From assembly GCA_016719055.1 (NCBI GenBank), contig JADKAW010000018.1:2015-66014 (forward strand): a stretch of DNA of 64,000 nt, given 5' to 3'. The notes below the pieces were generated by a model. That model searched no databases. It saw only the letters and a program-made list of their open reading frames with translations, and was not told the origin of the DNA. The position numbers and the translations under genes are program-made. This document shows, piece after piece, positions 18,134-35,729 of the stretch. Source of the DNA: Candidatus Rhodoferax mariagerensis. Its GTDB lineage: Bacteria > Pseudomonadota > Gammaproteobacteria > Burkholderiales > Burkholderiaceae_C. The number at the start of each line of letters is the position of its first letter. Position 1 is the stretch's first letter.

Positions 18134-18835
18134 ATGTCAAGTTTGCTCATTATTGAAGACGACGAACTGCTGCGCGACGGGCTCAGTGCCCAGTTGGCGC
18201 AGGTGGGCCATGCCGTCACTGCCGCAGCCGATGGCGAAGCCGCGCAACTGCTGCTGGAGTCGCACCGTTTTGATGGGGTTGTGCTGGACCTGGGCTTACC
18301 AAAAATCAGTGGCATGGAACTGCTGAAGTGGTTGCGCAATCGCCTGCCAGCCTTGCCGGTGCTGATTTTGACCGCCCGCGATGGCATCGATGACCGGGTG
18401 CAGGGCCTCAATGCCGGCGCAGATGATTACCTGACCAAGCCATTCAACATGGCCGAACTGCAGGCGCGCCTGAGTGCCATGCTGCGCCGCGCCCGCTTGC
18501 CGGCGTTTGGTGGCACGCTGGAGGTGGCCAGCGCTGCCACCTGCCGGCTGCGTGTGGATGCCACCCTGCCACAAGCCTGGCTGGGTGATGAGGCGCTGGA
18601 ACTCACACAGCGTGAATGGGCCTTGTTGTCGCTGCTGGTAACCCATGCCGGGCGCGTGGTCAGCCGTGAGGACGTGCTGGAAACCTGGCAGTCCGAGCCC
18701 GGTGACGGGCCGGGCGTGGCCTCGAATGCGCTGGAGGTCTATATCCACCGCCTGCGCCGCAAACTGGTGGACTCGGGGCTCAACATTCGCAATGTGCGCG
18801 GCTTGGGCTATATGCTGGAGTCCACCACGGCATGA
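18134..18835 (+). CDS. OmpR/PhoB-family response regulator
   Basis: MSSLLIIEDDELLRDGL..., a receiver Asp in VVLDLGLP, and a winged-helix C-terminus (VRGLGYML). Confidence 0.9.
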   Translation: MSSLLIIEDDELLRDGLSAQLAQVGHAVTAAADGEAAQLLLESHRFDGVVLDLGLPKISGMELLKWLRNRLPALPVLILTARDGIDDRVQGLNAGADDYLTKPFNMAELQARLSAMLRRARLPAFGGTLEVASAATCRLRVDATLPQAWLGDEALELTQREWALLSLLVTHAGRVVSREDVLETWQSEPGDGPGVASNALEVYIHRLRRKLVDSGLNIRNVRGLGYMLESTTA

Positions 18836-20268
18836 GTCCGCTGGCCCGTCAGGCGGTCCCGCCTGCGCCGTCCACCGCAATGCTCCGGCAAGGCTTGTCA
18901 CTCAAGCGCCAGTTGCTGATCTGGCTGCTGCTGCCTCAACTGGTGCTGTTACTGGTGGGTGGGGTGCTGGCCTACCGAGTGGCCCTGAGTTATGCCGAAA
19001 AAGCCATTGACCAGTCGCTGACCCAGTCGGTGCGCTCACTGTCGCGTCAGGTCAAGCCGGTGGGTTCCGGCTTGCTGATTGATTTTCCGCGCGCCGCGCA
19101 AGACATCATTGAGCAGGACCCCAAGGACCGGGTCAGTTACATGGTGTCGTCGCCGCCCGGCAGCTTTTTGCTGGGTAATGGCAAACTTCCCGGGCCGGAG
19201 CAGCCGGCGCCGTTCATGGCCAACGAAACGGTGCTGTACAACGCCCAGATTGACGGGCGCGCCATGCGCGTGGCGCTGCTGGAGGTGGACTACGGTGACA
19301 GCCAGTCGCCGCAGCGCATGCGGGTGCAGCTGGCCAAAAGCCTGGCGGTGCAGCAGCGCCTGACCACCGAGCTGATCGCCGACATGCTGGTGCCCTTGCT
19401 GTTGCTGGGTGCAGTCTTGAGCATGCTGGTGTATGGCGGCATTTCGCGCGGCCTGCAGCCCCTGACCAGGTTGCAGGCCCAGCTGGGGGACCGCAGCGAA
19501 CCTGCACTGTCGGCCCTGTCGCCGATTGAGCTGACCCAGGCGCCACAAGAAGTGCACGCACTGGCTGCGGCGGTGAACCAGCTGCTGTCGGCGGTGCGGC
19601 GTAGCCTGGGGCAGGAAAAGCGCTTTTTGAACGATGCAGCACACCAGTTGCGCACGCCGCTGGCTGGCCTGATCAGCCAGACCGAGCTGGCGCTGACCGA
19701 AACCGACCCCGATGCCTTGCGCGAGCGCTTGAACAAGGTCTTGTCCGGCGCGCAACGCAGCGCCCATCTGGTGCACCAGTTGCTGTCGCTGGCGCGTAAC
19801 GAGGTCGAGGTCAGGCTTGCCCCGCTAGATATTGCCGAGCTGGCACGCGATGTGGCGCGGCAATGGACTCCCCGCGCGCTCAAAGCCGGCATTGATCTGG
19901 GCTTTGAGGGGGCCGATCATCTGTTGGTGATGGGTGAAGCCTTGTTGTTGCGCGAAGCGCTGAGCAATCTGATTGACAACGCGTTGACCTACGCCGGACC
20001 CAACAGCGAAGTCACCCTGAGCGCGCAGGCCAGCGGGGCACAGGTGTTGGTCGCCGTTCAGGACAACGGCGTGGGCCTGTCAGAGGCTGACTTGCCCCAT
20101 GTGTTTGAGCGTTTCTGGCGTGCCAGCCATGTGCCTGGTGGCTGTGGTCTGGGACTGGCCATCGTGAACGAGATTGCCCAGCGGCATGGGGGCAGCGCCA
20201 GCGTGACTGCCGTGCTGCCGCAGGGTTTGCGGGTGCAATTGTTGCTGCCGCGCGCCAACCATGACTGA
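18832..20268 (+). CDS. Sensor histidine kinase (two TM, HAMP, HisKA, HATPase_c)
   Basis: H-box FLNDAAHQLRTPL, N-box LIDNALTY, and G-boxes DNGVGL and GGCGLGLAIV. Its ATG overlaps the response regulator stop (ATGA). Confidence 0.9.
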   Translation: MSPLARQAVPPAPSTAMLRQGLSLKRQLLIWLLLPQLVLLLVGGVLAYRVALSYAEKAIDQSLTQSVRSLSRQVKPVGSGLLIDFPRAAQDIIEQDPKDRVSYMVSSPPGSFLLGNGKLPGPEQPAPFMANETVLYNAQIDGRAMRVALLEVDYGDSQSPQRMRVQLAKSLAVQQRLTTELIADMLVPLLLLGAVLSMLVYGGISRGLQPLTRLQAQLGDRSEPALSALSPIELTQAPQEVHALAAAVNQLLSAVRRSLGQEKRFLNDAAHQLRTPLAGLISQTELALTETDPDALRERLNKVLSGAQRSAHLVHQLLSLARNEVEVRLAPLDIAELARDVARQWTPRALKAGIDLGFEGADHLLVMGEALLLREALSNLIDNALTYAGPNSEVTLSAQASGAQVLVAVQDNGVGLSEADLPHVFERFWRASHVPGGCGLGLAIVNEIAQRHGGSASVTAVLPQGLRVQLLLPRANHD

Positions 20269-23089: not shown

Positions 23090-24031
23090 ATGAAAATTAC
23101 CGAAGTTCACCGGAGTCTCGCGCTGATCTTTGGCAGTTGCCTGCTGGCTACTTCGTTGTCTGCGCAGGCCGCACCCAAGGGTGCCAAAGCGATTTTTGAC
23201 AGCGGCGGCGGCGGCGGCACGATTGGTATGTCGGTCAACGCTGCACGCCCGGCCACACCGGTCGCAAATGCCGAGCCAGTGTCCCAGAGGTATGTGGGTA
23301 TTTCTTACCAGATCATGGCCATTGAAAACGATGGCCAGATGCGGCCAGTGTCAAAAAACCGCACCTTTCGTTCAGGTGAGCGCGTCAGAATTCTGGCCAG
23401 CACCAATCGGCCAGGCTACTTGACAGTGGCCAACATTGGCACCTCGGGCCGGATGACCGTGCTGTTTAGCGAGTATGTGGACGCCTACAGGATGACCCAG
23501 ATTCCGCAAAACAGCAATTTGCGTTTTGATGGCAATCCTGGTACAGAAAACGTGTTGATCATGTTGTCCAACGAGCCCAACCCGATCGCGGGGCCTTCCA
23601 ACAGTGTGGTGTCGGCACCCCCTGCGCCTACTTATCCGACGCAGGTATCAACACCGGCCCCAGCGCCGGCCTACCCCGCACCAGTATCGGCACCCTATGT
23701 GCCGCCGCCGCCCATGCCGGGCACCGATACCGCAACAGCGCCAGCCTACCCAGCGCTGCCACCTGAGCAGGCCAGTGCCAGTTTGGTGGCCTCGCTCGAC
23801 GGTGCCAAGAGTCTCAAAGCCAAAGGGTCCAAAGATCTGATGGTGGAAGACAGCATGGAAAACTCCTACACGGTCGTGTCTCCCAGACAAGGAGGCTACA
23901 AGGCCGTCAGCGGTGGTGCCAAAGATTTGATCATGGAGTCAACAGAAGGTACCAATTACGGCATGGTGCCGGTGGCCGCTGTTTCTGGGGGCGGCATCCT
24001 GACGCTAGAAATCAAACTTAAACATCGCTAA
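23090..24031 (+). CDS. Secreted DUF4384-like protein with Pro-rich linker and C-terminal G-[AS]-K-D-L motifs
   Basis: Signal peptide MKITEVHRSLALIFGSCLLATSLSAQA. FRSGERVRILASTNRPGYLTVANIGTSGRMTVLF...GTENVLIMLS resembles DUF4384. A PAPxYP-rich linker follows. GGAG lies before the ATG at 23090. Confidence 0.7.
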   Translation: MKITEVHRSLALIFGSCLLATSLSAQAAPKGAKAIFDSGGGGGTIGMSVNAARPATPVANAEPVSQRYVGISYQIMAIENDGQMRPVSKNRTFRSGERVRILASTNRPGYLTVANIGTSGRMTVLFSEYVDAYRMTQIPQNSNLRFDGNPGTENVLIMLSNEPNPIAGPSNSVVSAPPAPTYPTQVSTPAPAPAYPAPVSAPYVPPPPMPGTDTATAPAYPALPPEQASASLVASLDGAKSLKAKGSKDLMVEDSMENSYTVVSPRQGGYKAVSGGAKDLIMESTEGTNYGMVPVAAVSGGGILTLEIKLKHR

Positions 24032-24034
24032 CCG

Positions 24035-24059
24035 ACAACGGCTATCTGCCGTTGTTTTG
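24035..24059 (+). terminator. Possible terminator after the DUF4384-like gene
   Basis: ACAACGGC-tatct-GCCGTTGT followed by TTT. Confidence 0.45.
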
Positions 24060-24117
24060 CAATGTCGTAGACGTTAATTAATATTGACGGGCTATTGTGG
24101 CCCGGGAGATGCAACAA

Positions 24118-24822
24118 ATGAAAAGACCTTATACGCGCTCGGTAGCCAAAGTCATGCTGCCCGTGTTCTTGACTGCCTGTGCAGCGCTACCGCCGCCAGG
24201 AACCCGCTTGACTGACCAAGAGCGCGCTGAGGCCCAAAAAACCTGCGTGAATCAGTACGTTGTAGGGGGTGCCATCGGCGGAGCACTTCTGGGCATGCTG
24301 GTCTCAAGCAGCAAAGACCGTACGCAGGGTGCGGTGGTCGGTGCTATTGCCGGCGGCGCTCTGGCACACAGTTATGCCTGGGGCAAGTGCTTGTCGTATT
24401 ACTCTGACACCAACAGTTTCCCGGTTGCCAACGCCCAGCAGACGGCTGCGGCAGTGGGCTACACGGCCAGTCGGGGTAACGAAGTGCGTATCCAGAGTTT
24501 TGTCGTGACTCCAAGCCAGATTGCACCTGGGGGCAATCTCAAGCTCAATGGTTCTTACTATGTGATGGCGCCTGATGGCCAGCAGCAGGTCAAGGTGATT
24601 GAAACCCGCACCGTGTACTACCAGGATCCCAAAGACAACTCATGGAAAGAACTGGGTTCAGAAACAACGCCCATCACTGCGGCACTTGGCAGTCGTCGGT
24701 CCGAAGGACAAACCGGCATGCCGGTCGAGGTGGCCGAGGGGCGCTACCGCGTGACGTTCAAGGTCAGTGCGCTGGGTCGCGAAGATCAAGCCTCGCAGGA
24801 AGTCGTGATCAAAAAGTCTTGA
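24118..24822 (+). CDS. Lipoprotein with glycine-zipper segment and beta-rich C-terminal domain
   Basis: Lipobox VFLTAC and a glycine zipper GGAIGGALLGMLV...GAVVGAIAGGALA (Rick_17kDa/SlyB-like). The start could also be 24097 or 24109. Confidence 0.65.
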   Translation: MKRPYTRSVAKVMLPVFLTACAALPPPGTRLTDQERAEAQKTCVNQYVVGGAIGGALLGMLVSSSKDRTQGAVVGAIAGGALAHSYAWGKCLSYYSDTNSFPVANAQQTAAAVGYTASRGNEVRIQSFVVTPSQIAPGGNLKLNGSYYVMAPDGQQQVKVIETRTVYYQDPKDNSWKELGSETTPITAALGSRRSEGQTGMPVEVAEGRYRVTFKVSALGREDQASQEVVIKKS

Positions 24823-24828
24823 CCAACC

Positions 24829-26100
24829 ATGAACTGCCGTCGTAACAAGCCGATTTTCCTGTTATTTGCGTTGTTGTTGGCGCTGGCGTTGCCCGTGTTC
24901 GGGCAGCAAGCGTCGCCAACACCAGTGACGCAGCAGCATTTGCAGATCATCAATTCGGCTTTTGCCCGCAACGGGGTGGTCAACGGGCGGGTCGAGTTTG
25001 ATGCCTACGGCAGGGTCGAGCTCAAAGGTGATTATGTCGACGAGCCAGAGGTTGACCGGGCTTTTTCGCTGGCGCAAGTAGTGGTGGGCGTCAAGTGGGT
25101 GTCGCCAGTCACACCAGAAAACATCCAGGTCAAAACTTGGGAAAAGAAGCTTGGCAACCTCTTTGCCCGTGCCAATGTGTTGCAGCCATCGGTGCGTGGA
25201 GACGGCATGCCCGGGCCAATCCGCAACCGTTATGCTGTGGTCGTTGGGGTAGGGCGCTTCAAGTATGGCATTCAGCCGCTTGAATATGCTGCCCGAGATG
25301 CGCTGGCTTTTTATCAGTTTCTGACCGATCCGCGCCGGGGGCAGTTCCGCCCCGACAATGTTGTTTTCCTGACCGACGAAAACGCCACGCGCTCCAATGT
25401 TGCCGTTGCGCTTGACAAGCTGCGTCAACTGGCAGGCGAAGATGATCTGGTGACGGTGTATATCAGCAGTCACGGCAGCCCGCCAGACAAAAAAGGGGCG
25501 GTCAATGTGGTGACGTATGACACCGAGACCAAACCCCGCGAGCGCATCTGGTACACCTCGGTGACCGAAGATATGCTCAAAGAATTTGTCGAAGGTGTCA
25601 AAGCCAAGCGCTTGGTCATGGTGCTCGACACTTGCTACAGCAATGGTGCCTACCGGGCTGTCCCGGGCTTTTTGCCGCCTGGTGGCAAATCACTTGGCGC
25701 GGGTGACAGCGAAGGTTACGGCATCAGCCAGGAGTCCAGCCGACGCATGCTCGGTGGTGCCAAGGACCTGGTGCTGGAAGACGACACGCGCCGCGCCACA
25801 ACTGCCAAATCAGTCAATATTGGATCGACCGAGCCCTATGGGAAAGTGCTCATTGGCGCCAGTGGCTCAGGCGAGCAGTCGTGGGAGTCGGAAAAGCTGC
25901 GAAACAGCATTTTCACCTACTACTTTGTCGATGGACTCAACCGCTACAGTGGTTCGGTGCAACAAGCATTCAACTATGCCAAACCTCGTGTTGCCAGCCG
26001 CGTCAAAGAAGAAAAAGGTCACGACATTGACCAGAACCCGCAAGCCATGGCGACCATGCCCAACTGGGACATGCGCTTGACGCAAGCGGCCACACGTTAA
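24829..26100 (+). CDS. Secreted BON-domain caspase-like protease (peptidase C14 / orthocaspase)
   Basis: Signal peptide MNCRRNKPIFLLFALLLALALPVFG. The N-terminus is BON-like (GRVELKGDYVDEPEVDRAFSLAQVVVGVKWV). The C14 core RYAVVVGVGRFKY...YISSHGS (His codon 25471) and VLDTCYSNGA (Cys codon 25633) is present. The gene starts 6 bp after the preceding gene. Confidence 0.8.
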   Translation: MNCRRNKPIFLLFALLLALALPVFGQQASPTPVTQQHLQIINSAFARNGVVNGRVEFDAYGRVELKGDYVDEPEVDRAFSLAQVVVGVKWVSPVTPENIQVKTWEKKLGNLFARANVLQPSVRGDGMPGPIRNRYAVVVGVGRFKYGIQPLEYAARDALAFYQFLTDPRRGQFRPDNVVFLTDENATRSNVAVALDKLRQLAGEDDLVTVYISSHGSPPDKKGAVNVVTYDTETKPRERIWYTSVTEDMLKEFVEGVKAKRLVMVLDTCYSNGAYRAVPGFLPPGGKSLGAGDSEGYGISQESSRRMLGGAKDLVLEDDTRRATTAKSVNIGSTEPYGKVLIGASGSGEQSWESEKLRNSIFTYYFVDGLNRYSGSVQQAFNYAKPRVASRVKEEKGHDIDQNPQAMATMPNWDMRLTQAATR

Positions 26101-26120
26101 CTCCCCACTGAGGACTGTTT

Positions 26121-26786
26121 ATGCACACCACGAAAAACGCATCCCTATGGCTTAGCACTTTGGCCAGTGCTGTTGTTCTGCTGTCAGGCTGCGACAAAAT
26201 TCCAGGATTGGGCAAACCCGCAGAAGCACCCGCACCCGTGGCAGCACCGGTTGCACCGCCACCTGTTGCGGACCCTGCCCCGGCAACCATTGCCGTAGCA
26301 CCTCCTACAGTTGCAACCTCACCTGCACCCGCGGCTGGCCCCAGTCTGGAAGTACAGAGCCACATCAAGCAAGCATTTGCTTACATCAGTATGGCAAAAA
26401 ATGCGCAAGGCTCAATCCGCGAAGAGAACATTGATAACGCGCTCAAAGAGTTTACGGTTGCGATTCAAAAAGATCCCAACTACGCCGAAGCCTATTCCAA
26501 CCGGGCTGCCACCTACATGCAGCAGAAAAAATTCAACAAGGCCGACGATGATTTGCGGCGCGCCAAAGAGTTGTCACCAGACAGTCCATCCGTGCGTTAC
26601 AACTACGCCAGCTTGCATTCGCTCAAAGGGAACGTCGACCTGGCGCTGGATGAGGTCGATGCCGCCTTGACCAAAGGCTTTTCGGACTATGACGCGCTGC
26701 GCCTTGATCCGGACCTGAATAATGTGCGAAAACACCCAGAATTTCGAAAAATTCTTGAAAAACACAAGGTGTTTATCGTCAAGTAA
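26121..26786 (+). CDS. TPR-repeat lipoprotein
   Basis: Lipobox LLSGC, an Ala/Pro-rich linker, then TPR units (DPNYAEAYSNRAATYMQQKKFNKADDDLRRAKELSPD...). Confidence 0.75.
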   Translation: MHTTKNASLWLSTLASAVVLLSGCDKIPGLGKPAEAPAPVAAPVAPPPVADPAPATIAVAPPTVATSPAPAAGPSLEVQSHIKQAFAYISMAKNAQGSIREENIDNALKEFTVAIQKDPNYAEAYSNRAATYMQQKKFNKADDDLRRAKELSPDSPSVRYNYASLHSLKGNVDLALDEVDAALTKGFSDYDALRLDPDLNNVRKHPEFRKILEKHKVFIVK

Positions 26787-26830
26787 AACGCGTTTGGAAG
26801 TTGATGGAGCAACCTTGAAAGTTTGATGTC

Positions 26831-27220
26831 ATGCGCCAATTCGTCCGTTCCCTGGTCATGGTGCTGGTCGCGTGTGTAGGTTCGGACTTATGGGCACAGC
26901 AGCCTGACCCCACTTCCACGCGCCGGTTCGCAGATTGCCTGTGCCGTTGCTCCAGCGGCTGGGCAGCCCATATTGGCGTGTTTTATGACCCGGATCACAA
27001 GCATGCCGCCACTTGCGAAAGTGCTGGCCCGTGTATTGGCGGCATTGGAGCGTTTGGCTGCTCCAGCAGGCACTATCTGAGTGCGACGACCGAATGCAGT
27101 CGCAGTTGCTGGGAGCAGGCGTTTGCCGGGCAGGCTTTCAACAACGGCACCATCACCGAGTTTTCTGACACGCTCAATCAGCGCTATCGACAGCGCCAAG
27201 GATCAACGGGCGGCAAATAG
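26831..27220 (+). CDS. Small secreted 8-cysteine protein (stand-alone copy of a module also found in the giant protein)
   Basis: 129 aa with a signal peptide. CLCRCSSGWAAHIGVFYDP...CESAGPCIGGIGAFGCSSRH...TECSRSCWE is about 66 percent identical (counted by eye) to residues encoded at 31707-31899. Confidence 0.65.
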   Translation: MRQFVRSLVMVLVACVGSDLWAQQPDPTSTRRFADCLCRCSSGWAAHIGVFYDPDHKHAATCESAGPCIGGIGAFGCSSRHYLSATTECSRSCWEQAFAGQAFNNGTITEFSDTLNQRYRQRQGSTGGK

Positions 27221-27308
27221 GCGCAGGCTCGCGCCGCAATGACGGCGTGCCAACAGGGCTAGGTTCATTGGACGTTCGCTATCAACTGGCGCAAACAAGA
27301 GGCACCCC

Positions 27309-30300
27309 ATGAAACTATTTGGCTTTCGCACCCTTGCACAAGCGTTGGTCAGCCTCTGGCTGGTCGTTGCAGCCGGTCTGTTGCCAGCCTTCGGCGCATC
27401 CAATCAGGAATTCCCATACCCGCTGGGCGAGCATATTCTGGCCAGCATCCTGCGTCATGAAAAGCACACGGATGCGTCACTGCTGCTGCTCACGCAGAAC
27501 CTCAAATGGTATGAACAGGAAAAGGGCAAACTGCCAGGCCCGATACAAGATGAAATTCAACACCTGAGAATCAATTTGGCGGGCGAGGTAGCCCAATCTT
27601 CGGCGCGCCAACTCGGCGAAGCCGAGGCGGCTTTTGCTGCCACTGGCTCCTGGAAGCCAGGGCGTGACATGGACATTGTTTACATGGGCAAAAATGGCGA
27701 CGCAGCAGCCCAGTCGATTGCCCGCAACTATGAAGCCCGCAGTGCCAATATTCTGGCCAGCGCCGAAATCGACCCCATTCTGAAAAGTTATAGCGGTGAT
27801 GTCCCGCGCAGCCTCACCGCCAACAGCTTGGCCGTCTGTACCACCGAGCTTCCCAACTTTGGCTATGAAGACCTGAACAAGGCCTTTAACCAGGCCAAGC
27901 AGGCGCTCGCGCGCGGCGAATCAAAAGACGAGATTATGGCCACGCTGCGCCGTGACATCCAGCAAGCCATGGCCAACAACATGAACGGCCATTTTGCAGC
28001 GCAGGCCAACCCGGACTACTACGCCGGAGCCACCGGGCAGAAATGGTTTCAAGACACTTACCTAGACAAACCGGACAAAATGCGCACCTTCATGCAGAAC
28101 GAGAGTGGCAACTGGGTGCTCAAGCCGGGCGGCATCCAGGCGGTGCCTGCCGACATCGTTGAGCGTCTTGGTTTTGGCTCCATGGGTGGCTCGGGCGTCA
28201 AGTTTTCCAAGATCGCGTCGGACTACGCACTCTTCTTCTCGCACATGCATGGTGGTCCCTCTGACAACGCCAAATATGTGCTGCGGGTCTGGAAAGACAT
28301 GGGGTTAAATGCCATTCAGGATTTGAGTGCGGCTGAAGTCAAGATGCTGGCAGCGGCCAAGAAGATTGACTTGAAGCCATCGCAAGCGTCGCAAGAACTG
28401 GCCAAAATAGGGCTCAGTGTGGATGACTTCAATGCGAACATGTCGCGCATTCTGTTGAACTGGACCGAGTCGCAGTTGGTCAAAGACATGGACCTGCTGG
28501 TCACTGAACTGGGGTCGAGTTCAGCCAAAACGGTGGACGAACTCGACAAACTGCTGCGCCAGGCCAAAACCACCATGAACCTGAATGAACTGGTGGCGGG
28601 TCTGGATAAGCTCAAGGTGGCACCCCCGGAGGTGCGGGCACGCCTGATTGATCGGCTGAAAGCCAAGTTTGGCAGCACGCCAGCGGGCGTTGCCGCCATC
28701 AACTTTGTCATGCGCAATCTGGGCCTGCTGGGCGACTCCAGCGGTGAGCTGACGCGCCGTTTGGTCATCATCCTGAAAGACATGGGGAAAATCCAGCCGC
28801 AAGATGCTGACGCCTTGCTGCGCGGCGAACCTGCTTCTGACGCGGCCCAGGCGCAGATGAAACGGGCACGGCAGGAGATTGCTGCGCTCAGTTCCGGTGG
28901 CATGGTGGAATTTGACGACGCATTGGATGTGGACCGACTGATGGAGGACTGGCGCAAAGCCAAGCCCGATGCCTTGCTGCAGTCACCCAGCGACGAACTG
29001 AAGAAAACCCTGGAAGAATTGCGCGGCTCGGTCGATGAGGCCAGGCTCAAAGAACTTGGTTGGGCCGACGATGAGATTGCCGCCCACCGGCGTGTGCTGG
29101 ACCGCATGCGCAAGGATGCCATGCGCAAGCTGGGTCAAAAACTCGAACCTCGCCTGGTCAAAGGTGGGGTAAGCCTGCGCAACTTCCAGCAAAAAATGCG
29201 CGAATTGATCTTTAGCCCCGCCTACACAAAATTTGGCGATGCCAGCTCATCCGTAGGAGTGTTTGATGCCGTGGTGGGGGTCGCAGCCGGCTTGTACTCC
29301 ACTTATGACATTCTCAACAACCAGCGCTTGTCGCCTGCCGACGAAGCGCAGGCGCTTGAAAACGCCTGGGTCACGGCTATTCCGATCGTGGGCGACTTTG
29401 CTCAGGGCTTGATCACCGGCGGTCAGGCTTTTTACGAGGGCGACAAGGGCAAGGCACTGGAGGCCGGTCTGTGGATCACCATCGGCACCATGGGCTGTGT
29501 ACCAGGTGGGCAGTTGCCGGCCGTTATTCTTGGCATCGGGCTGGCGACCAAACCCATTGTGGCTGGATCCTACGATGCCCGTCAGGCACAGCATCTGGTG
29601 CAGGCCTGGATCGAGTCAGGCAAATGGAGCAAGGACAAGCCTCGCAAGCTGCTGGGTTTGTATGACCGAGCCTCGGGCGATCCCGAGATCTATCTGGACA
29701 TCAAATACTCTGAACTACTGACTGACAAGGGCAAACTTCCCTATAAATCTACCCGCTTGGGTGACGTCAGTATCAACCAGTCGATTCGTGACTACGCCGA
29801 AAAATATGTGACGCCGCAGTATCCGGCCATCAAGTCGATCCGCGAAGCCTTGCTCAGCGTGTACCCCGATTTCAATGACAAGGAGTGGAGTGACGAATTC
29901 TCGGCGAGTCTCAAGATTGATGCGCGTGGAGGCAAGGGTAGCAAGATCCTGTTTCGTTCTTACTTCCAGTTGCATGGCAAGGCGATGGTGCAAACCATCA
30001 ACCATCTCAAACAATGGGCTGAAGACGAGATGCGCGCGCTCAAGGATTACGACTCAGAAGCTGCGCGCCTGCGCGACGAACTCCGCACACTTGAGCGTGC
30101 CCTGCAAACCGGCAATCTGGTCAGCAATGCCGATGCTTCAGTCGAGGCCTACAGCAAGATCGTTGCCAACTTGTGGGAACAAGAGAGCCTGCCGTTGGCC
30201 AGGCTGCGGATTTACGAGCACTACGTCAATACCTACAGAACGATTGAAGGCAAACTGCGCCGGGTGATGGACATTCTGAAAGAAGCCAGCAACCCCTTCC

Positions 30301-33300
30301 TGCCGCCGGGCTGGCACCTGACCGGTTACCCCGAACTGGACCGAGACCGGGTCGACAAGCTCAGCGCCAGCATGGAAAACGGTCGCAAGGGTGTGATTGA
30401 GGACATTGAAAACACTCTGAAAGAGTTTGGCATTCGCAGCACGCGTTATGACAAAAACAACGCTTGCCACAAGGCGGCGTTTGATGCGCTGGCGCCTTTG
30501 CGCTACAAATATGCCTTCATTGAATTTCAGGCGCTGTATTTCAAGGCGTTGGCAGAAGGTAGTTCCACCTGGTCATCGGCTTTTGAGACTGCCAAGGCAC
30601 GTTATCAGGAGTCGCGCGCGCAGGTGCTGCGCAACATCGGCAGCAATCTGCAGTCCCACCCGCATGTCATGATGCTGATGGAGCAAAAAGCCATGACCGA
30701 TGCGTTCATGAGCTTTGTGGTGGCTGTGCCCTACGCGCTGGCATCGACTGAAGTTGGCGTGTACCAGTCTGCCGCACGTGACTACGAGTTGCGCCAGTAC
30801 AGCGCGGGGCTGGACTACCAGCTCGCCAAGGGCCGCAGTGGCAAAGTTGGGCGTGACCTGGCAGACTGCCTGCAGGCGCAGTTGCAGATTGACCTGCAGC
30901 TGTCCAACCCGCAACCCGAAGCAGGTACCGACGTCACTGCTAGTTATCGCCTTGTCAAGGGCGAAACCCACGCGGATGTGGTTTGGGACTGGAAGCTCGA
31001 AGGTGCGCTGGTGAAAAAGACGGCCGAACCAGGTAGCTTGGTGTTTACCGTGAATGGACCCGGCAAGCTGACGGTTTTTTTGCGCGACTGGTACAACCCC
31101 AACACAAGCAAATATGGCAAGGTTCTGGCCCAAATCAGTGCCGATATTCAGCCTGGCCTGCCGTCAGATGTGAAGGTGTTTGTCAGCGGGCCGACCCAAA
31201 CCGAATTGGGCAGTAGCGTAAGTTATTTCGCCTCCATCGACGCCAAGCCGGGTGTGGCCCAGGCGATGCTGGCCAATGCCCACATTGAATGGCGGCTCAA
31301 TGGCGACGCCGGCGCAGGCAGCGACAGCAGTTTCCGCTTTTCACCGATACGCACGGGCAGCTACAGCGTGGTCGCTACCGCCTACGTGATGGAACGTGGC
31401 AAAAAGCGGGTCATCGCCAGTTCTCGTCCTGTTACTTTGCAAGTGCGTGACGGCATGGACAAAGACAAAGACGGTGCTGCCAACCCGGACAAGGGCAAAC
31501 GCGATGGTGAACCGGACAAGCCCAAAGAAGCCCCGTCCTGTAGCTACACCTATTCTGAATGGGGCGAGTGCAGCCGCGCCACCAAGAAACAAACCCGCAG
31601 CGTGACCGTTACCCAGCCCGCGGGCTGCGTGGAAAAAGCCAAGCCGGTGCTGGAGCAAGGCTGCACCCCGCCACCGAGCGAAGAGGACAAGAAAAACAGC
31701 TACCTCAACTGCCTGTGTCGTTGCTCCAGTGGCTGGGCCGGACACATCGGTGTCTGGTATGACCCCGAGCAAAAGACGGTGCCGGAGTGCAAGAGCTCCG
31801 GCCCCTGTATTGGCGGTATTGGCGCCTTTGGCTGCTCCAGCCGGCATTTTTTCAACTCGTCAACCGAATGTGCCAAAGGCTGCTGGGAAGGCGCTTACGG
31901 TAAGGGATCGTTTGACGCTGAAAAAGCCAACAAAATGGCCAAAGAAGAGAACAAGAAGTACAAGAAGCCGCCAACGGTGAAGATCAACGCTTCCAAAAAT
32001 CCGGCAGACTTTGGCGACATCGTGAGCCTGACGGCGCAGGCCAGCGAAGGCAGTGGCGGTTACAAGTGGAATTGGGGCGGCTGTGCGCAGGACGCCAAGG
32101 ACAACACGGCCAAGGTGCTTAACTCGCGCAGTTGCCAGGCTTGTCAGGCCTCGGTCACGGTGACCGACTCTGATGGTGATTCGGCGTCTGACAACCTGAC
32201 GATCCAGTGCACCGCGCTCAAGGTCAAGCTCACCAAAGAAAGCCCCAAAGAGAGCCGGCTGCCAGTGGGCAGCTCAGCCAAATTCCTGGCTGAGGTGATG
32301 TCAGGCACGCAGGCGGCGTCGGGCAGCTTCTCGTACATCTGGGAGCGCAATCCGGACGCCGTTTTTGGCGATCCCAAAAACCCGGCTTATGAAACCAAGG
32401 GCGGTGCGCAGTCACGCAACACCGCCAGCTTTGGCAAGCTGGGCACGATTCCGATCTGGGTCTCGGTGCTCAAAGAGGTCGATGGCCGCAAGATGACGAT
32501 TGGCGAGTCCGAGCAGATCATGATGGAAGTCGTCAAGCCCAAGCTCACCCTCAGCGCCGAACCGAAAGACGCCCTGGTTGGCCAGGAGATCAAGATCACC
32601 GTGCAAGAAGAACCCAAGATGAGCGACGATTTGTTGTCGTTCTGGTGGGAAATCAGTGGTGAGGCCAACAACCCAGGGCCAGTCCCCAATGTGCCCAACA
32701 GCCGCGCTTATTCGTTCAAACCCAAGTCTGACAAACCAGTGACTGTCACTGTGCATGCCAAGGCCAAAGACGGCGGTGATGAACTGGGCGTTGAAAAAAT
32801 CACCTTACAAGCCAAAAAGCCATCGATAACCGTCACCGGGCCGAAGATTGCCGGACCGGCGCCCATGATCTGGAAAGAGGGTGTCGGGCTGGTGTCCGTG
32901 GGCCAGCAGGTTGTTGAAGACCAGCGGGTTGAGTTTGCCGTGACCGTGTCGCCCGAATTGAAACAGGAGCTGCGCTACCAATGGAGCGTGAAGCCCGAAG
33001 GCTGTAGCCTGAGTGCGCCATCATCCAAAGAAACCGGCATCACCTGCGCCAAGACCGGCGGCTATGCGCTCACGGTCATCGTGCGCAACAGCGAAGGCGC
33101 CGAACTCGGCAGCGGCGAGGGCAGCCTGAACGTCACGGTGTCGCAATCCGACATCAAAAAAGGCAAGCAAAAAGACGAAGCCGCCAAAAAACTGGAGCAA
33201 GCCCGAGCGTTGTGGAGTCAGGGCAAGATTGACGAGGCACTGGCACTGTTGGCAACCGTGGCCAGCACCGAGCCCCAATTGGCCGCTCCGGTGAGCAATC

Positions 33301-35729
33301 AGTTTGGACAGGGCCTGAAGAAACTGGGCAGCGACGCCCTGCAGGCGCTGGACCCCACCACGGCCGTGAAGCGCCTGGAGCAAGCCGTGAAACTGCTGCC
33401 AGGTGATGCCGAAATTCGACAAAAACTGCAGCAGGCCCAACAGATGGTGCAGTTGCAAGCGCAGGCACTGCAGTTTCTTGAGGCTGCCAAGGCCAATCTG
33501 GCACGCGGTGTGCCAGCCGACGTGAAAGGGCTGACAGAACTGATCGCCGAGCTGAAAAAGCGTGAAGCTGCCTTTGCCCCGGCCGACCCGCGCCGCCCAC
33601 CGTTTGCCGCCCTAGCCGCCAGCGCGCAGCAAAAGCTGGTGCAGGCACAGCAACAAGCCGCTGCCTGTGAAGCCAAGTGGACCGAGGGCAAAGCCTTGTA
33701 TGACGCGAAAAAAATGCCCGAAGCTCTGGCCAAATTCAAGGAAAACCTGATCTGCGAACCAGGTCGACCCGAACGCCAAGCCTATGTCGGGCAGTTAGAG
33801 CAGGCCATCAAGGCGCAACAAGCCCAGCAAGCCGCTGCCAAACGTCTGCGCGACGAGGGTGCCGCCCTGCAGGCGCAAAACAAGCTGCCAGAGGCACTGG
33901 CCAAATACCGCGAAAGCCTCAAGCTGCTACCAGACCCAGCACTGGCCCAGCACATACAGACCCTGGAGCGCCAGCTACAAGAAGCGCAGCAAAAGGCGGC
34001 CCATGCACAACAGTTGCGTGCTGAAGGCGAGGCCTTGCAACGCCAAAACCACATTCCCGAAGCCATTGCCAAGTACCGTGAAAGTCTGAAGCTCGTGCCT
34101 GATGCCAAGCTGGAACAGCACATTCAGTCCCTGGAGCGCCAGGTACAGCAACAGCAGCAAACTGCTGCACAGGCGCAGAAGCTGCGGGCTGAGGGTGAGG
34201 CCCTGCAACGCCAAAACCACATTCCAGAAGCCATTGCCAAGTACCGCGAAAGCCTCAAACTCGTGCCCGACGCCAAACTTGAGCAGCACATTCAGACCCT
34301 GGAGCACCAGGTGCAACAACAGCAGCAAACTGCAGCCCAAGCGCAAAAGCTGCGGGCTGAGGGTGAGGCATTGCAACGCCAAAACCGCATTCCAGAGGCA
34401 ATTGCCAAGTACCGTGAAAGTCTGAAACTGGTTCCCGATGCCAAGCTGGAGCAACATATTCAAACCTTGGAACAACAAGCGCAACAGCAACAGCAAAACA
34501 CGGCGCAGGCACAAAAACTGCGGGCTGAAGGCGAGGCACTGCAACGACAAAACCGCATTCCGGAAGCGATTGCCAAATACCGCCAAAGCTTGAGTCTGGT
34601 ACCTGATCGCTCGCTGGAGCAGCATATTCAGACCCTTGAGCAGCAAACGCAACAGCAGCAACAAAACATGGCGCAGGCGCAAAGGCTGCGTGCTGAAGGC
34701 GAGGCGTTGCAACGTCAAAACCGCATTCCTGAGGCAATTGCCAAATACCGCCAAAGCCTGAGCCTGGTGCCCGATCGTGCGCTGGAGCAGCACATTCAGA
34801 CGCTGGAACGGATACTGCAGACACCAGCGCCCGTGCCCGCGGTGCCACCCATTGACCATGGCGGGCGCTCATACACCTCGATGGAGCCGGCGCCAGCGCC
34901 CACGCCTCAGGTCAAGCCAGGTACGTTGGTCGATAGCGGCAATGTTTCAGGCGTTTACAACATGCCAACCCGCCCGACCGTGATCCGGCTGGCACAAGAA
35001 ATCGTTCTGACCAGTATCACCAACTACCACTGGAACGACGGCCGTGGCACGTCCCGCACTGGGAGCATCGCCCTGCGCGATGCCAGCGGACGCAGCTATG
35101 GCCCATGGCCAACCAGCGGACGCCCGGGCCAGGGGGGGGTGCCCAATGCCTACTGGACAGCCACGCCCAACGTCAGACTGCCAGCAGGAGACTATGTCGT
35201 GACTGATTCCGACCCCGCCACCTGGTCGCAAAACAGCGGTTCGGACGGCGCGGGGCACACCCGCTTTGACGGCTATCCGACCTCACCCACGAGTGGTGGT
35301 CGGGTGGCCACGGTGCTGCCGACATCACCGCATGCATCGCCGGTGCAGCCCACACCCCAACCGCCGCCGCCAAGTCAGAAACCAGCCAACTTTGATGGCA
35401 GTTATGTAGGTCAATTTGGCGGCGATGGCGGTGGCCCGATTCGTTTTACCGTGCGTGGCGCCAATGTGCAAGGTCAGGTCAACGGCAACATTGACGGCGA
35501 CAAGGTGACAGCCACCTTGTCGGGCACCGTCAGCGCGGCTGGGCAGATCACCATGCAAGTCAAGGGGACGGTGCAGTGGCGACTGTCGTCGCAGTCGCAA
35601 TACAGCGAAACCCCGTTCAACGGCCAGTTGACCGGCACCATTCAGGGCAGCCACGTCAGTGGGCGATGGACTGCCGTCAGCATGGACCAGGACGACAAAC
35701 GCTCTGGCACCTGGACCGCCAGCCGTTAG
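27309..35729 (+). CDS. Giant (2806 aa) secreted multidomain protein: helical N-region, Gly-rich hydrophobic segments, Ig-like domains, Cys modules, TPR-like tandem repeats, beta-rich C-terminus
   Basis: One uninterrupted ORF. AAGAGG lies before the ATG. Signal peptide MKLFGFRTLAQALVSLWLVVAAGLLPAFGAS. The domain calls come from sequence patterns only; I recognise no named family for the first ~1190 aa. Confidence 0.85.
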   Translation: MKLFGFRTLAQALVSLWLVVAAGLLPAFGASNQEFPYPLGEHILASILRHEKHTDASLLLLTQNLKWYEQEKGKLPGPIQDEIQHLRINLAGEVAQSSARQLGEAEAAFAATGSWKPGRDMDIVYMGKNGDAAAQSIARNYEARSANILASAEIDPILKSYSGDVPRSLTANSLAVCTTELPNFGYEDLNKAFNQAKQALARGESKDEIMATLRRDIQQAMANNMNGHFAAQANPDYYAGATGQKWFQDTYLDKPDKMRTFMQNESGNWVLKPGGIQAVPADIVERLGFGSMGGSGVKFSKIASDYALFFSHMHGGPSDNAKYVLRVWKDMGLNAIQDLSAAEVKMLAAAKKIDLKPSQASQELAKIGLSVDDFNANMSRILLNWTESQLVKDMDLLVTELGSSSAKTVDELDKLLRQAKTTMNLNELVAGLDKLKVAPPEVRARLIDRLKAKFGSTPAGVAAINFVMRNLGLLGDSSGELTRRLVIILKDMGKIQPQDADALLRGEPASDAAQAQMKRARQEIAALSSGGMVEFDDALDVDRLMEDWRKAKPDALLQSPSDELKKTLEELRGSVDEARLKELGWADDEIAAHRRVLDRMRKDAMRKLGQKLEPRLVKGGVSLRNFQQKMRELIFSPAYTKFGDASSSVGVFDAVVGVAAGLYSTYDILNNQRLSPADEAQALENAWVTAIPIVGDFAQGLITGGQAFYEGDKGKALEAGLWITIGTMGCVPGGQLPAVILGIGLATKPIVAGSYDARQAQHLVQAWIESGKWSKDKPRKLLGLYDRASGDPEIYLDIKYSELLTDKGKLPYKSTRLGDVSINQSIRDYAEKYVTPQYPAIKSIREALLSVYPDFNDKEWSDEFSASLKIDARGGKGSKILFRSYFQLHGKAMVQTINHLKQWAEDEMRALKDYDSEAARLRDELRTLERALQTGNLVSNADASVEAYSKIVANLWEQESLPLARLRIYEHYVNTYRTIEGKLRRVMDILKEASNPFLPPGWHLTGYPELDRDRVDKLSASMENGRKGVIEDIENTLKEFGIRSTRYDKNNACHKAAFDALAPLRYKYAFIEFQALYFKALAEGSSTWSSAFETAKARYQESRAQVLRNIGSNLQSHPHVMMLMEQKAMTDAFMSFVVAVPYALASTEVGVYQSAARDYELRQYSAGLDYQLAKGRSGKVGRDLADCLQAQLQIDLQLSNPQPEAGTDVTASYRLVKGETHADVVWDWKLEGALVKKTAEPGSLVFTVNGPGKLTVFLRDWYNPNTSKYGKVLAQISADIQPGLPSDVKVFVSGPTQTELGSSVSYFASIDAKPGVAQAMLANAHIEWRLNGDAGAGSDSSFRFSPIRTGSYSVVATAYVMERGKKRVIASSRPVTLQVRDGMDKDKDGAANPDKGKRDGEPDKPKEAPSCSYTYSEWGECSRATKKQTRSVTVTQPAGCVEKAKPVLEQGCTPPPSEEDKKNSYLNCLCRCSSGWAGHIGVWYDPEQKTVPECKSSGPCIGGIGAFGCSSRHFFNSSTECAKGCWEGAYGKGSFDAEKANKMAKEENKKYKKPPTVKINASKNPADFGDIVSLTAQASEGSGGYKWNWGGCAQDAKDNTAKVLNSRSCQACQASVTVTDSDGDSASDNLTIQCTALKVKLTKESPKESRLPVGSSAKFLAEVMSGTQAASGSFSYIWERNPDAVFGDPKNPAYETKGGAQSRNTASFGKLGTIPIWVSVLKEVDGRKMTIGESEQIMMEVVKPKLTLSAEPKDALVGQEIKITVQEEPKMSDDLLSFWWEISGEANNPGPVPNVPNSRAYSFKPKSDKPVTVTVHAKAKDGGDELGVEKITLQAKKPSITVTGPKIAGPAPMIWKEGVGLVSVGQQVVEDQRVEFAVTVSPELKQELRYQWSVKPEGCSLSAPSSKETGITCAKTGGYALTVIVRNSEGAELGSGEGSLNVTVSQSDIKKGKQKDEAAKKLEQARALWSQGKIDEALALLATVASTEPQLAAPVSNQFGQGLKKLGSDALQALDPTTAVKRLEQAVKLLPGDAEIRQKLQQAQQMVQLQAQALQFLEAAKANLARGVPADVKGLTELIAELKKREAAFAPADPRRPPFAALAASAQQKLVQAQQQAAACEAKWTEGKALYDAKKMPEALAKFKENLICEPGRPERQAYVGQLEQAIKAQQAQQAAAKRLRDEGAALQAQNKLPEALAKYRESLKLLPDPALAQHIQTLERQLQEAQQKAAHAQQLRAEGEALQRQNHIPEAIAKYRESLKLVPDAKLEQHIQSLERQVQQQQQTAAQAQKLRAEGEALQRQNHIPEAIAKYRESLKLVPDAKLEQHIQTLEHQVQQQQQTAAQAQKLRAEGEALQRQNRIPEAIAKYRESLKLVPDAKLEQHIQTLEQQAQQQQQNTAQAQKLRAEGEALQRQNRIPEAIAKYRQSLSLVPDRSLEQHIQTLEQQTQQQQQNMAQAQRLRAEGEALQRQNRIPEAIAKYRQSLSLVPDRALEQHIQTLERILQTPAPVPAVPPIDHGGRSYTSMEPAPAPTPQVKPGTLVDSGNVSGVYNMPTRPTVIRLAQEIVLTSITNYHWNDGRGTSRTGSIALRDASGRSYGPWPTSGRPGQGGVPNAYWTATPNVRLPAGDYVVTDSDPATWSQNSGSDGAGHTRFDGYPTSPTSGGRVATVLPTSPHASPVQPTPQPPPPSQKPANFDGSYVGQFGGDGGGPIRFTVRGANVQGQVNGNIDGDKVTATLSGTVSAAGQITMQVKGTVQWRLSSQSQYSETPFNGQLTGTIQGSHVSGRWTAVSMDQDDKRSGTWTASR
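33828..34835 (+). repeat. Six tandem 168-bp (56-aa) coding repeats inside the giant gene
   Basis: Units start at 33828, 33996, 34164, 34332, 34500 and 34668. The consensus is AAQAQKLRAEGEALQRQN(H/R)IPEAIAKYRESLKLVPDAKLEQHIQTLE-Q-QQQQQ. Confidence 0.9.

Follow-up and report, generated by a model that had tools for sequence, protein, structure and literature searches.

A conserved gene module around a predicted exported caspase-like protease in Candidatus Rhodoferax mariagerensis, with a DUF4384 protein as its likely target

What a caspase-like protease might do outside the bacterial cytoplasm, and on which of its neighbours it might act, are the questions raised by six same-strand genes that fill positions 23090-35729 (+ strand) of a 64,000-nucleotide stretch of Candidatus Rhodoferax mariagerensis DNA (assembly GCA_016719055.1, contig JADKAW010000018.1), all of which is referred to below as the window. 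The third gene encodes a predicted Sec-exported cysteine protease of peptidase family C14 and the sixth a giant protein of 2806 amino acids (aa). An initial annotation took the six for a single, entirely extracytoplasmic caspase cluster whose protease may process the giant, the DUF4384-like product of the first gene, or both. To our knowledge, what bacterial C14 proteases do in the cell is for the most part unknown, except in cytoplasmic defence systems. The comparisons reported here point to a conserved core of four genes, in which the DUF4384 protein is the likely target of the enzyme, with the giant as a variable accessory.

The conserved core and its protease

The listing of open reading frames (ORFs) and their translation bore out what had initially been said of the six genes, of their spacing (gaps of 6, 20, 44 and 88 base pairs (bp) between the last five) and of the catalytic codons, and an independent gene call on the identical public contig gave the same starts, with 313 aa for gene 1 and 234 aa for gene 2 (from the ATG at 24118; an alternative start is the GTG at 24097). 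The export signals claimed for every product were also found in a heuristic check, all six N-termini having a Lys/Arg n-region and a hydrophobic core, with lipoboxes in gene 2 (LTAC, 24172-24183) and gene 4 (LSGC, 26184-26195). Scanning one genome per GTDB species yielded 66 loci, in which neighbouring genes were located by tblastn. The genes for the DUF4384 protein, the glycine-zipper lipoprotein, the exported C14 protease and the TPR lipoprotein stand in this fixed order wherever the contig is long enough, and the order is kept in about 60 of the 66 species-level loci, at which the caspase orthologues are 47-82% identical to gene 3. Clustering of the neighbouring ORFs recovered these four families in 66, 67, 68 and 62 loci, respectively, and no other real family comparably conserved beside the core; the same four stand in the same order in the neighbourhoods of three distant gene 3 relatives. 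The core spans at least five bacterial phyla and was found in Rhodoferax, Ideonella, Ca. Skiveiella, Nitrospira japonica, Thermodesulfovibrio, the isolate Syntrophus buswellii DM-2, Geobacter, Syntrophorhabdus, Ca. Methylomirabilis and Dissulfurispiraceae, while the genes flanking it differ between loci and are housekeeping or regulatory. Judged from these sequences, genes 1-4 form a conserved extracytoplasmic protease module, the location being indicated by the signal peptides and lipoboxes, the single Cys of the mature protease, the Cys pairs conserved among gene 2 orthologues and the eight-cysteine (8-Cys) module of genes 5 and 6. What had been called a six-gene cluster is thus really a four-gene core with variable accessory genes. 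The idea of a self-contained extracytoplasmic proteolytic module gains support from this cross-phylum linkage, and searches of the cluster with Pfam, NCBIfam and PADLOC found no NTPase, nucleic-acid sensor or known effector partner to which the enzyme would be coupled.

Several lines of evidence agree that the gene 3 product is a predicted cysteine protease of the C14 fold. Residues 134-409 match PF00656 (Peptidase_C14) with 56.5 bits against a cut-off of 21.4 (E 4e-15), and an AlphaFold2 (AF2) model built from a 12-sequence alignment gives the catalytic core a predicted local distance difference test score (pLDDT) of 86-97. With this model Foldseek retrieved MALT1, GSU0716 (3bij), Yca1 and AtMC9/AtMC4 (E 1e-12 to 1e-8, probability 1.00), and by sequence the best PDB match is AtMC4 (6W8S; E=4e-8). 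The catalytic dyad, His215 (25471-25473, in SSHG) and Cys269 (25633-25635, in DTCYS), is invariant in 12 orthologues and aligns with AtMC4 H86 and C139, so that profile, model and structural search all uphold the fold and the dyad initially proposed. TbMC2 Asp95/Asp211 and AtMC4 Ser84/Asp137/Asp352 form an acidic S1 pocket that binds a basic P1 residue (PMC6426788, PMC7206013). Of their counterparts in gene 3, S213 and D267 align with AtMC4 Ser84 and Asp137, and D157 with the Asp of the C-x-N-D motif, TbMC2 Asp95; all three are invariant in the orthologues. E349/E353, invariant in the p10 part, may correspond to AtMC4 Asp352, by inference and not by alignment. The enzyme thus appears to retain the acidic S1 pocket residues of metacaspases, and a basic-P1 specificity is predicted. 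In 61 of 68 orthologues the mature protein has a single Cys, which suits a thiol protease acting in an oxidising compartment. Gene 3 has 521 homologues, many of them 60-80% identical, in Ideonella, Nitrospirota, Syntrophales and Thermodesulfovibrionales.

The other domains named by the initial annotation fared unequally, since DUF4384, Gly-zipper, Peptidase_C14 and TPR all score above Pfam thresholds and the BON assignment is weak. The isolated N-terminal domain of gene 3 has no Pfam match to BON (PF04972) even at E<=10; a profile of it run against PDB gave OsmY BON domains as the best match, a weak one (E=0.003, domain i-E-value 0.075), and in the AF2 model helices 35-47 and 72-89 enclose strands 53-57 and 63-67, an alpha-beta-beta-alpha order at pLDDT 57-77. 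A BON-like domain is plausible but unproven. In gene 1 a signal peptide and the N-terminal motif PKGAKAIFDSG precede a DUF4384 beta domain (PF14326; 42.5 bits against 27, E 7e-11, domain positions 1-81 of 81, found in orthologues too), which a Pro-rich linker joins to a C-terminal tail bearing repeated Lys motifs. Gene 2 matches PF05433 (Rick_17kDa_Anti; 33.3 bits against 24.2, E 4e-8), its lipobox Cys is nearly invariant among orthologues, and its conserved C-terminal domain is beta-rich. Gene 4 has a Pro/Ala-rich linker after the lipobox, then TPRs and a TPR end-of-group cap (NCBIfam NF047558, 72.8 bits against 32). The residue at position +2 of the lipoprotein signal is Ala in gene 2 (Ala/Gly in 46 of 51 orthologues) and Asp in gene 4 (Asp/Glu in 29 of the 45 orthologues with a detected lipobox), a hint, read from sequence, that the two may have different destinations, the outer membrane for gene 2 and the inner membrane for gene 4.

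A lysine motif common to the protease linker and the DUF4384 protein

The evidence that ties the protease to one of its neighbours is a short motif. In its strict form, G-x-K-D-[LI]-h-h-[ED], the orthologue alignment places one copy in the protease, between the catalytic Cys and the p10-like part, and the motif recurs in the C-terminal tail of the DUF4384 protein. One copy was found in 66 of 73 gene 3 orthologue ORFs; among those of gene 1, 53 have two copies and 16 have one. Six full-length proteases depart from the strict pattern, yet they retain G-A-K, and in none of the six is the Lys replaced. Relaxed to G-[GAS]-K-[ASD]-[LI], the motif has four sites in gene 1 (31, 238, 246, 276) and two in the gene 3 linker (285, 310), and these six are all the sites among window ORFs of at least 250 aa, the scan finding none in genes 2, 4, 5 and 6. 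Its rate is 6.35 per 1000 aa in orthologues of genes 1 and 3 against 0.038 in background ORFs (about 170-fold). Both G-x-K motifs of the 63-residue gene 3 linker are invariant in the alignment, and the motif belongs to a repeat of about 18 residues, G-x-K-[SD]-L...E-G-x-Y-G-[IMV], that genes 1 and 3 have in common. The linker itself (residues 271-333) is the sole long low-confidence stretch inside the otherwise well-predicted catalytic domain.

A divergent relative of the system, the protease of which is 27% identical to gene 3, is carried by a Paraburkholderia megaplasmid, and its layout is common to 6-7 metagenome loci (L082 5058-12789; L083-L089). This subtype comprises genes for a Gly-zipper protein, a BON-like C14 lipoprotein, a DUF4384 protein, a Tubulin_2 protein (an FtsZl1-type GTPase of 1005 aa), a zinc-ribbon/transmembrane/TPR protein and a TPR-cap lipoprotein. 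In the same 6-7 loci the motif has the form [YF]-T-S-K-G-I-x-F in the linker of the protease and, in two copies, Y-A-A-K-G-I-x-F in the tail of the DUF4384 protein; the residue after the Lys has changed from D to G and the fourth after it from L/V/M to F, in both proteins together. Such co-variation argues that a single site may read both the linker and the tail. Because the motif is shared with the protease linker and co-varies with it, the DUF4384 protein is likely to be the target of the caspase-like enzyme, and this part of the initial proposal thereby gains specific support. The divergent subtype also suggests a link from cytoplasm to periplasm, absent from the version in the window, and its TPR protein, bitopic in the membrane, together with the +2 Asp/Glu of gene 4 gives the hint of an inner-membrane TPR partner.

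Taking these results together, we favour, with moderate confidence, a model in which the enzyme would be a zymogen with specificity for Lys, held in place by lipoproteins, and the DUF4384 protein its dedicated substrate or pseudosubstrate. The C14 enzyme would be exported by Sec and probably kept on a membrane surface through its BON-like N-domain and the two lipoprotein partners, of which the glycine-zipper protein (+2 Ala/Gly) would sit at the outer membrane and the TPR protein (+2 Asp/Glu) would be retained at the inner membrane. By analogy with the type II metacaspase AtMC4, it would probably be made as a zymogen. In AtMC4 the linker residue Lys225 occupies the active site, flanked by the catalytic residues, and the enzyme cuts itself there on activation (PMC7206013); here the linker of about 65 residues would present its Lys (GGK-SL, GAK-DL) to the acidic S1 pocket and would likewise be cleaved at that point when the enzyme is activated. 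The DUF4384 protein, with the same motif once at the mature N-terminus and three times in the C-terminal tail, would be the dedicated substrate or, alternatively, a pseudosubstrate regulator competing with the linker, since it carries the motif of the linker itself. The TPR lipoprotein may be an adaptor of the kind that Prc has in NlpI and CtpA in LbcA, the latter a TPR lipoprotein partner needed to activate the CtpA protease (PMC8764530). The 8-Cys mini-protein of gene 5 and the giant would be lineage-variable cargo or partners, neither required parts nor demonstrated substrates.

The model draws on known systems from which it also departs. With AtMC4 and its substrate Propep1 (PDB 6W8S; PMC7206013) it has in common the C14 fold, the His/Cys dyad, the acidic S1 pocket, a long p20-p10 linker with a conserved Lys and, as proposed for gene 1, a dedicated small partner cut at basic residues. 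Unlike AtMC4, the gene 3 protein is bacterial and Sec-exported, has a BON-like N-domain and a linker of about 65 aa with conserved motifs of its own, is only about 15-25% identical over the p20 region, and has as its proposed substrate the product of an adjacent gene, a DUF4384 protein that shares the linker motif. The NlpI-Prc and LbcA-CtpA systems (PMC8764530, PMC11021448) likewise join a periplasmic protease to a TPR lipoprotein that tethers it, activates it or delivers its substrates; their proteases, however, are serine enzymes of family S41 and their known substrates peptidoglycan hydrolases, whereas here the enzyme is a C14 cysteine protease and the candidate substrate a DUF4384 protein. 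Gene 4 scores 18.4 bits against the cut-off of 250 of the NlpI model (E=0.0012), below family level, and has only generic TPR architecture and a lipobox in common with NlpI and LbcA. A precedent for DUF4384 as part of a protease substrate comes from type III-E CRISPR, where a caspase-like protease, Csx29, cuts Csx30, in some variants of which DUF4384 is the C-terminal domain, a domain otherwise often fused to proteases (bioRxiv 10.1101/2022.08.17.504292). That system differs in being cytoplasmic and RNA-guided, with a CHAT-type protease fused to TPR, and the cluster in the window has no CRISPR or nucleic-acid component.

Several points weigh against this model. The motif could be a docking or beta-strand element instead of a scissile site, the cleavage sites given here being predicted ones. 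Its strict Lys, never exchanged for Arg, is unusual for metacaspases, which accept both. That the gene 3 linker is disordered is not proven by low AF2 confidence from a 12-sequence alignment, the BON identity of the N-domain is weak, and the +2 lipoprotein sorting rule was established for Enterobacteriaceae and not for the taxa considered here. Finally, giants adjoin the core repeatedly across phyla, and some functional tie to the giant cannot be dismissed.

The first of these points can be developed into an explanation of its own, in which linker and DUF4384 tail dock via the same beta-strand peptide on a common receptor (the TPR lipoprotein, the beta-domain of gene 2 or the DUF4384 domain being candidates) and the DUF4384 protein, as scaffold or regulator, would bring about assembly of the protease or its inhibition. 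The amphipathic, strand-like pattern K-D-L-V-L-E-D within the repeat of both proteins would suit such binding, as would the strict retention of Lys, and a shared receptor would account for the co-variation just as well. Extended acidic peptides are common ligands of TPR domains. Nevertheless, the enzyme retains an intact dyad and acidic S1 pocket, the residues at P2 and P1' are small, as is typical of protease sites, and the p20-p10 linker that holds the motif is the site at which zymogens of the caspase family are cleaved (PMC7206013), so that we regard docking as a doubtful alternative to cleavage.

A more elaborate form of the cleavage model is, in our view, unlikely too. The core would then be an envelope signalling device, widespread but not recognised before, and a bacterial counterpart of AtMC4-Propep1 damage signalling in plants: an envelope cue would free the periplasmic Lys-specific metacaspase from its linker, the DUF4384 pro-protein would be cut and a C-terminal fragment or peptide liberated, the sister subtype would be wired to the cytoplasm through the transmembrane zinc-ribbon/TPR protein and the FtsZl1 GTPase, and the giants would serve as outputs or anchors.

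The giant protein and the surroundings of the core

Whether the giant belongs to the system as substrate was examined from its domains and its distribution. Its head contains an invariant Gly-rich hydrophobic helical stretch at about residues 640-790 (homologue alignment), and the head model (AF2 predicted template modelling score (pTM) 0.37) had no PDB match at E<=0.001 in Foldseek; in the heads of other giants, PKD and TPR were the only Pfam families detected. The PKD domain of the window's giant scores 22.4 bits in the whole protein, below the cut-off of 23.5, and 25.1 bits (E=1.8e-5), above it, in a fragment search. The C-terminal domains belong to no Pfam family; tblastn found the first of them, C1, at loci L002, L005, L010, L016-L018, L021, L044, L058, L060 and L071. 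A 168-bp (56-aa) tandem repeat of 5.5 copies with 80% match (33888-34807, Tandem Repeats Finder) codes the TPR/Gln-rich units and lies where the window has a strong AT skew (0.33-0.36; 33-35 kb). The TSP1-like module (31521-31673; residues 784-816 of the L060 giant) reads C-S-Y-x-Y-S-E-W-G-E-C-S...K-K-Q-T-R...G-C, thrombospondin type 1/midkine-like, matches PTN_MK_C with E=9e-4 in the window and 9e-7 in L060, and always stands just before the 8-Cys module. A peptide P-x-x-x-G-G-R-S-Y-T-S-[IM]-E-P lies between the TPR region and C1 (34842-34880, giant residues about 2512-2524; also in the L010 giant), and the same peptide stands just upstream of a gene-5-like module in the 315-aa relative P0131.

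Large proteins with central and C-terminal parts of the giant (TSP1-like, 8-Cys, PKD array, TPR/Gln-rich repeats, C1) adjoin the core in 23-24 of 62 non-redundant loci; their genes either follow it directly or precede it on the opposite strand. The giant heads fall into at least four apparently unrelated N-terminal types, as counted by reading the sequences without formal classification; the type found in the window stands beside the core elsewhere only in Syntrophus and one Rhodoferax locus, and also occurs in three metagenome loci without a nearby caspase. The 8-Cys module is rare: an exhaustive profile search of 1.84 billion proteins found it in 40 cluster representatives, in most of which it lies inside a protein of 800-3900 aa. 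Gene 5, which was assigned to no family, is 54% identical to giant residues 1459-1543, a copy of this module; it has two close homologues in a word-indexed search, a similar free-standing ORF was found elsewhere in L014 only, and most short 8-Cys matches in other loci resemble fragments of giants. A Cys-rich segment of L010/L016 (CLCRNCGG...) resembles the module weakly, with a pairwise E-value of 0.002 over 29 residues only. Linkage in other genomes, which the initial annotation had expected of the whole cluster, was therefore borne out for genes 1-4 across phyla, not for the patchily adjacent giant or the lineage-restricted mini-protein: gene 5 is a lineage-specific accessory and the giant a variable accessory of the core.

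Other genes lie near some of the giants. Upstream of giants without an adjacent caspase stands a PDZ-S41 C-terminal processing protease (L009 7686-8777, L081 1-107), and at L080 an M48 peptidase with TPR (5190-6347) lies between the caspase core and the giant. At L078 (1-7703) a 2978-aa 8-Cys giant without a nearby caspase adjoins RelA_SpoT, CTD7, MC3, LmuB_C (Lamassu-like) and a Y1 transposase, a neighbourhood that resembles a defence island. On the ENA contigs ERZ250394xx-ERZ250395xx (L007, L008, L009, L077) giant and core genes are broken into several adjacent ORFs, which look like frameshift errors and not real gene fission.

That the caspase matures, releases or activates the giant, as LapG frees LapA or a peptidase frees a toxin, can be judged against this distribution. 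The loci at which giants with TSP1-like, 8-Cys, PKD or C1 domains adjoin the core span Burkholderiales, Syntrophales, Syntrophorhabdus-like Deltaproteobacteria, Nitrospirota and Dissulfurispiraceae. Of five 8-Cys representatives sampled independently of the caspase, four were informative, and two of these have the core beside the giant (L077 and L080 yes; L078/L079 and L081 no; L076 uninformative). The S41 enzymes near giants without caspase, and the M48 enzyme that L080 has besides its caspase, would fit processing by periplasmic proteases, as would the Lys/Pro-rich low-complexity linker at the head-stalk junction, and LapG-LapA offers a precedent (PMC3032545). On the other side, the core stands without a related giant at about 19 loci where 7-10 kb of sequence is available to either side, giants are also found where the core is missing, and the loose Lys motif is missing from 9 of the 10 giants examined, that of the window included, the tenth having a single copy. 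The giant also has a Sec signal and shows no feature of type I (T1SS) or type V (T5SS) secretion systems or of RTX proteins. Adopting a conservative view, with no motif, a variable head, patchy adjacency and relatives without a caspase, the initial claim that the giant is a substrate or integral part is not supported; its processing by the caspase is possible but unsupported, and we consider it improbable.

Membership in the LapG-LapA-LapD system was likewise not borne out. That adhesin release system (PMC3032545, PMC3032553) resembles the locus in having a periplasmic cysteine protease and a giant surface-type protein, and a GGDEF-EAL gene adjoins the cluster in the window. LapG, however, is of another protease family, and LapA is a T1SS-exported RTX adhesin with an N-terminal retention module, whereas the giant of the window has no RTX match. 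Unlike LapD, the GGDEF-EAL protein is PAS-GGDEF-EAL only, no transmembrane segment being seen in its N-terminal region as read, and its gene is not conserved beside the core. Toxin activation, the other role suggested, receives no support: Pfam, the fragment search and Foldseek recognised no toxin domain or fold in the giant, no conserved immunity-like gene was found downstream across the loci compared, and a polymorphic toxin system was rejected because the variable part is the N-terminal head and the downstream genes differ between loci.

The flanks were correctly described as a GGDEF-EAL gene upstream and a convergent sugar ABC operon downstream (PAS-GGDEF-EAL and MalK-type, respectively). 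Neighbourhood comparison found the former kept only in close Rhodoferax relatives, for which reason we rejected it as a member of the system; directly 5' of it lies a two-component sensor kinase gene (2CSK_N, HisKA, HATPase_c; 18832-20268). The contrast initially drawn between a low-GC block and neighbours of 65-73% was overstated, the guanine-plus-cytosine (GC) content being 57.8% in the block and 59.8% in the rest of the window, with flanking genes at 56-64%, so that a low-GC island was rejected, the block lying within the window's range; at third codon positions (GC3) the values are 0.64 and 0.71 (standard deviation 0.056). A plasmid-borne or mobile module was rejected as well, the only PLSDB match being the divergent subtype at 27% identity. 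A scan for promoters and terminators gave counts not above those of shuffled sequence and says nothing about operon structure. Long antisense ORFs (- strand) lie over genes 1-4 at most loci and form 'families' in 49 and 27 of them; they are probably shadow ORFs of the conserved coding strand and not genes.

Table 1. Positions in the window of the six genes and of the features discussed, with the evidence for each
Feature	Position	Strand	Evidence
Gene 1, Sec-exported DUF4384 protein, 313 aa	23090..24031	+	Pfam DUF4384 7e-11; gene-caller start agrees; core member in 66 loci
Gene 1 motif copy 1, GAKAI, residues 31-35, mature N-terminus	23180..23194	+	Motif scan; G31 A32 K33 A34 invariant in 17 orthologues
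Gene 1 tail motif copies GAKSL (238-242), GSKDLMVE (246-253), GAKDLIME (276-283)	23801..23938	+	G246, K248, D249 invariant
Gene 2, glycine-zipper lipoprotein, 234 aa	24118..24822	+	Pfam Rick_17kDa_Anti; lipobox LTAC; core member in 67 loci
Gene 3, predicted Sec-exported C14 (metacaspase-like) cysteine protease, 423 aa	24829..26100	+	Pfam Peptidase_C14 4e-15; AF2; Foldseek; 521 homologues
Gene 3 N-terminal BON-like domain (plausible), residues about 30-100	24916..25128	+	N-domain profile against OsmY; AF2 topology
Gene 3 catalytic dyad region, with S213 and D267 as S1 pocket equivalents	25471..25635	+	Invariant in 12-orthologue alignment; aligned to AtMC4
Gene 3 p20-p10 linker, residues 271-333	25639..25827	+	AF2 pLDDT < 50 throughout
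Gene 3 linker motif GGKSL, residues 285-289	25681-25695	+	Motif scan
Gene 3 linker motif GAKDLVLE, residues 310-317	25756-25779	+	Motif scan; orthologue alignment
Gene 4, TPR lipoprotein, 221 aa	26121..26786	+	Pfam TPR_2 7e-11; NF047558; lipobox LSGC; core member in 62 loci
Gene 5, exported 8-Cys mini-protein, 129 aa	26831..27220	+	54% identity to giant residues 1459-1543
Gene 6, Sec-exported giant multidomain protein, 2806 aa	27309..35729	+	ORF and translation
Giant head, residues 1-1290, all-alpha	27309..31178	+	AF2 pTM 0.37; 8 homologues
Giant TSP1-like Cys module (1405-1455), then 8-Cys module (1464-1530)	31521..31898	+	Weak Pfam PTN_MK_C; 8-Cys alignment
Giant PKD/Ig-like array, residues about 1555-1945	31971..33143	+	Pfam PKD; homologous to other giants
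Giant TPR/Gln-rich repeat region	33156..34808	+	Pfam TPR_2 7e-26
Giant C-terminal beta-rich domains C1 (2540-2680) and C2 (2690-2806)	34926..35726	+	tblastn for C1

Remaining alternatives, known relatives and significance

Two further explanations seem to us far less probable than those weighed above. In the first, the C14 enzyme would be a sortase-like transpeptidase of the GPI8, PorU or legumain type, attaching or polymerising the DUF4384 protein on an envelope component through its Lys motifs. PorU and GPI8 are extracytoplasmic transamidases of the caspase-hemoglobinase fold, a weak secondary Pfam match of gene 3 is to Peptidase_C13 (E=0.0018), legumain is among the fold matches, and the invariant Lys of the repeated motifs could be acceptor nucleophiles. 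The closest relatives by sequence and by fold are nevertheless hydrolytic metacaspases and paracaspases, no sorting-signal-like C-terminal motif was recognised, and the neighbourhood gives no sign of an acceptor pathway, so that there is very little to recommend this explanation.

The second, in which the block would serve phage defence, abortive infection or programmed cell death, or would be an island gained by horizontal transfer, is hardly credible: the PADLOC 'caspase' match (E=7e-11) is partial (profile positions 2-130 of 453) and the other five proteins have none, the NCBIfam match to the EACC1-associated caspase model NF047832 is sub-threshold (76.9 against 140 bits), both cover the generic p20 region only, all products are exported, the cluster lacks the NTPase, sensor or effector partner expected, the flanking genes vary between loci, and no integrase or transposase family matched the genes searched, and against all this stand one 8-Cys giant beside Lamassu-like genes and a protease identity of at least 60% across phyla with a slightly lower GC3, compatible with past horizontal transfer. 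We therefore rejected the defence-system reading and assignment to the EACC1-associated caspases, and the initial view that this is not an abortive-infection system stands.

The initial statement that bacterial caspase-like proteases with known roles act in the cytoplasm was too strong, and an extracytoplasmic caspase is not new in itself, as secreted peptidases of clan CD and signal-bearing prokaryotic metacaspases are known (PMC3482391, PMC3501461). Gingipains/PorU, clostripain, the MARTX cysteine protease domain and the releasing peptidases of polymorphic toxins have the caspase-hemoglobinase fold outside the cytoplasm and process large secreted proteins (PMC3482391). They belong, however, to families C25, C11 and C80 and are usually domains inside the processed protein, whereas the C14 enzyme described here is encoded by a separate gene; unlike polymorphic toxins, moreover, the giant varies N-terminally and there is no toxin/immunity pair. 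Closer to gene 3 are the orthocaspases and prokaryotic metacaspases such as MaOC1 (PMC3501461, PMC6426788, PMC7475262), bacterial C14 enzymes with the same predicted basic-P1 specificity, of which DUF4384 and TPR are known accessory domains and for some of which N-terminal signal-like helices and extracellular domains were noted in 2012 (PMC3501461). In the module described here, by contrast, each partner has a gene of its own, the order of the four genes is fixed and two of the products are lipoproteins.

Our literature search found no study of the gene 3 subfamily and no description of the shared Lys motif. Three features for which no describing paper was found appear to be new: the fixed four-gene module and its breadth, the motif that is common to the protease linker and the DUF4384 partner and co-varies in both, and the sister subtype with its FtsZl1/Tubulin_2 GTPase. 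Envelope-associated operons, but no caspase, were noted in the paper defining the FtsZl1/Tubulin_2 family (PMC2875224).

Because the proteases are 47-82% identical from Burkholderiales to Nitrospirota and Syntrophales, the module probably serves a general envelope function in bacteria of sludge, sediment and biofilm. It offers a concrete and testable case of an exported C14 enzyme with a candidate substrate that has defined sites and with two candidate anchor or adaptor lipoproteins, and orthologues are available in the cultured strain Syntrophus buswellii DM-2. If our model is true, a role would be assigned to DUF4384, a domain repeatedly found with proteases, and the module would show whether the autoinhibition of metacaspases by a linker Lys predates eukaryotes.

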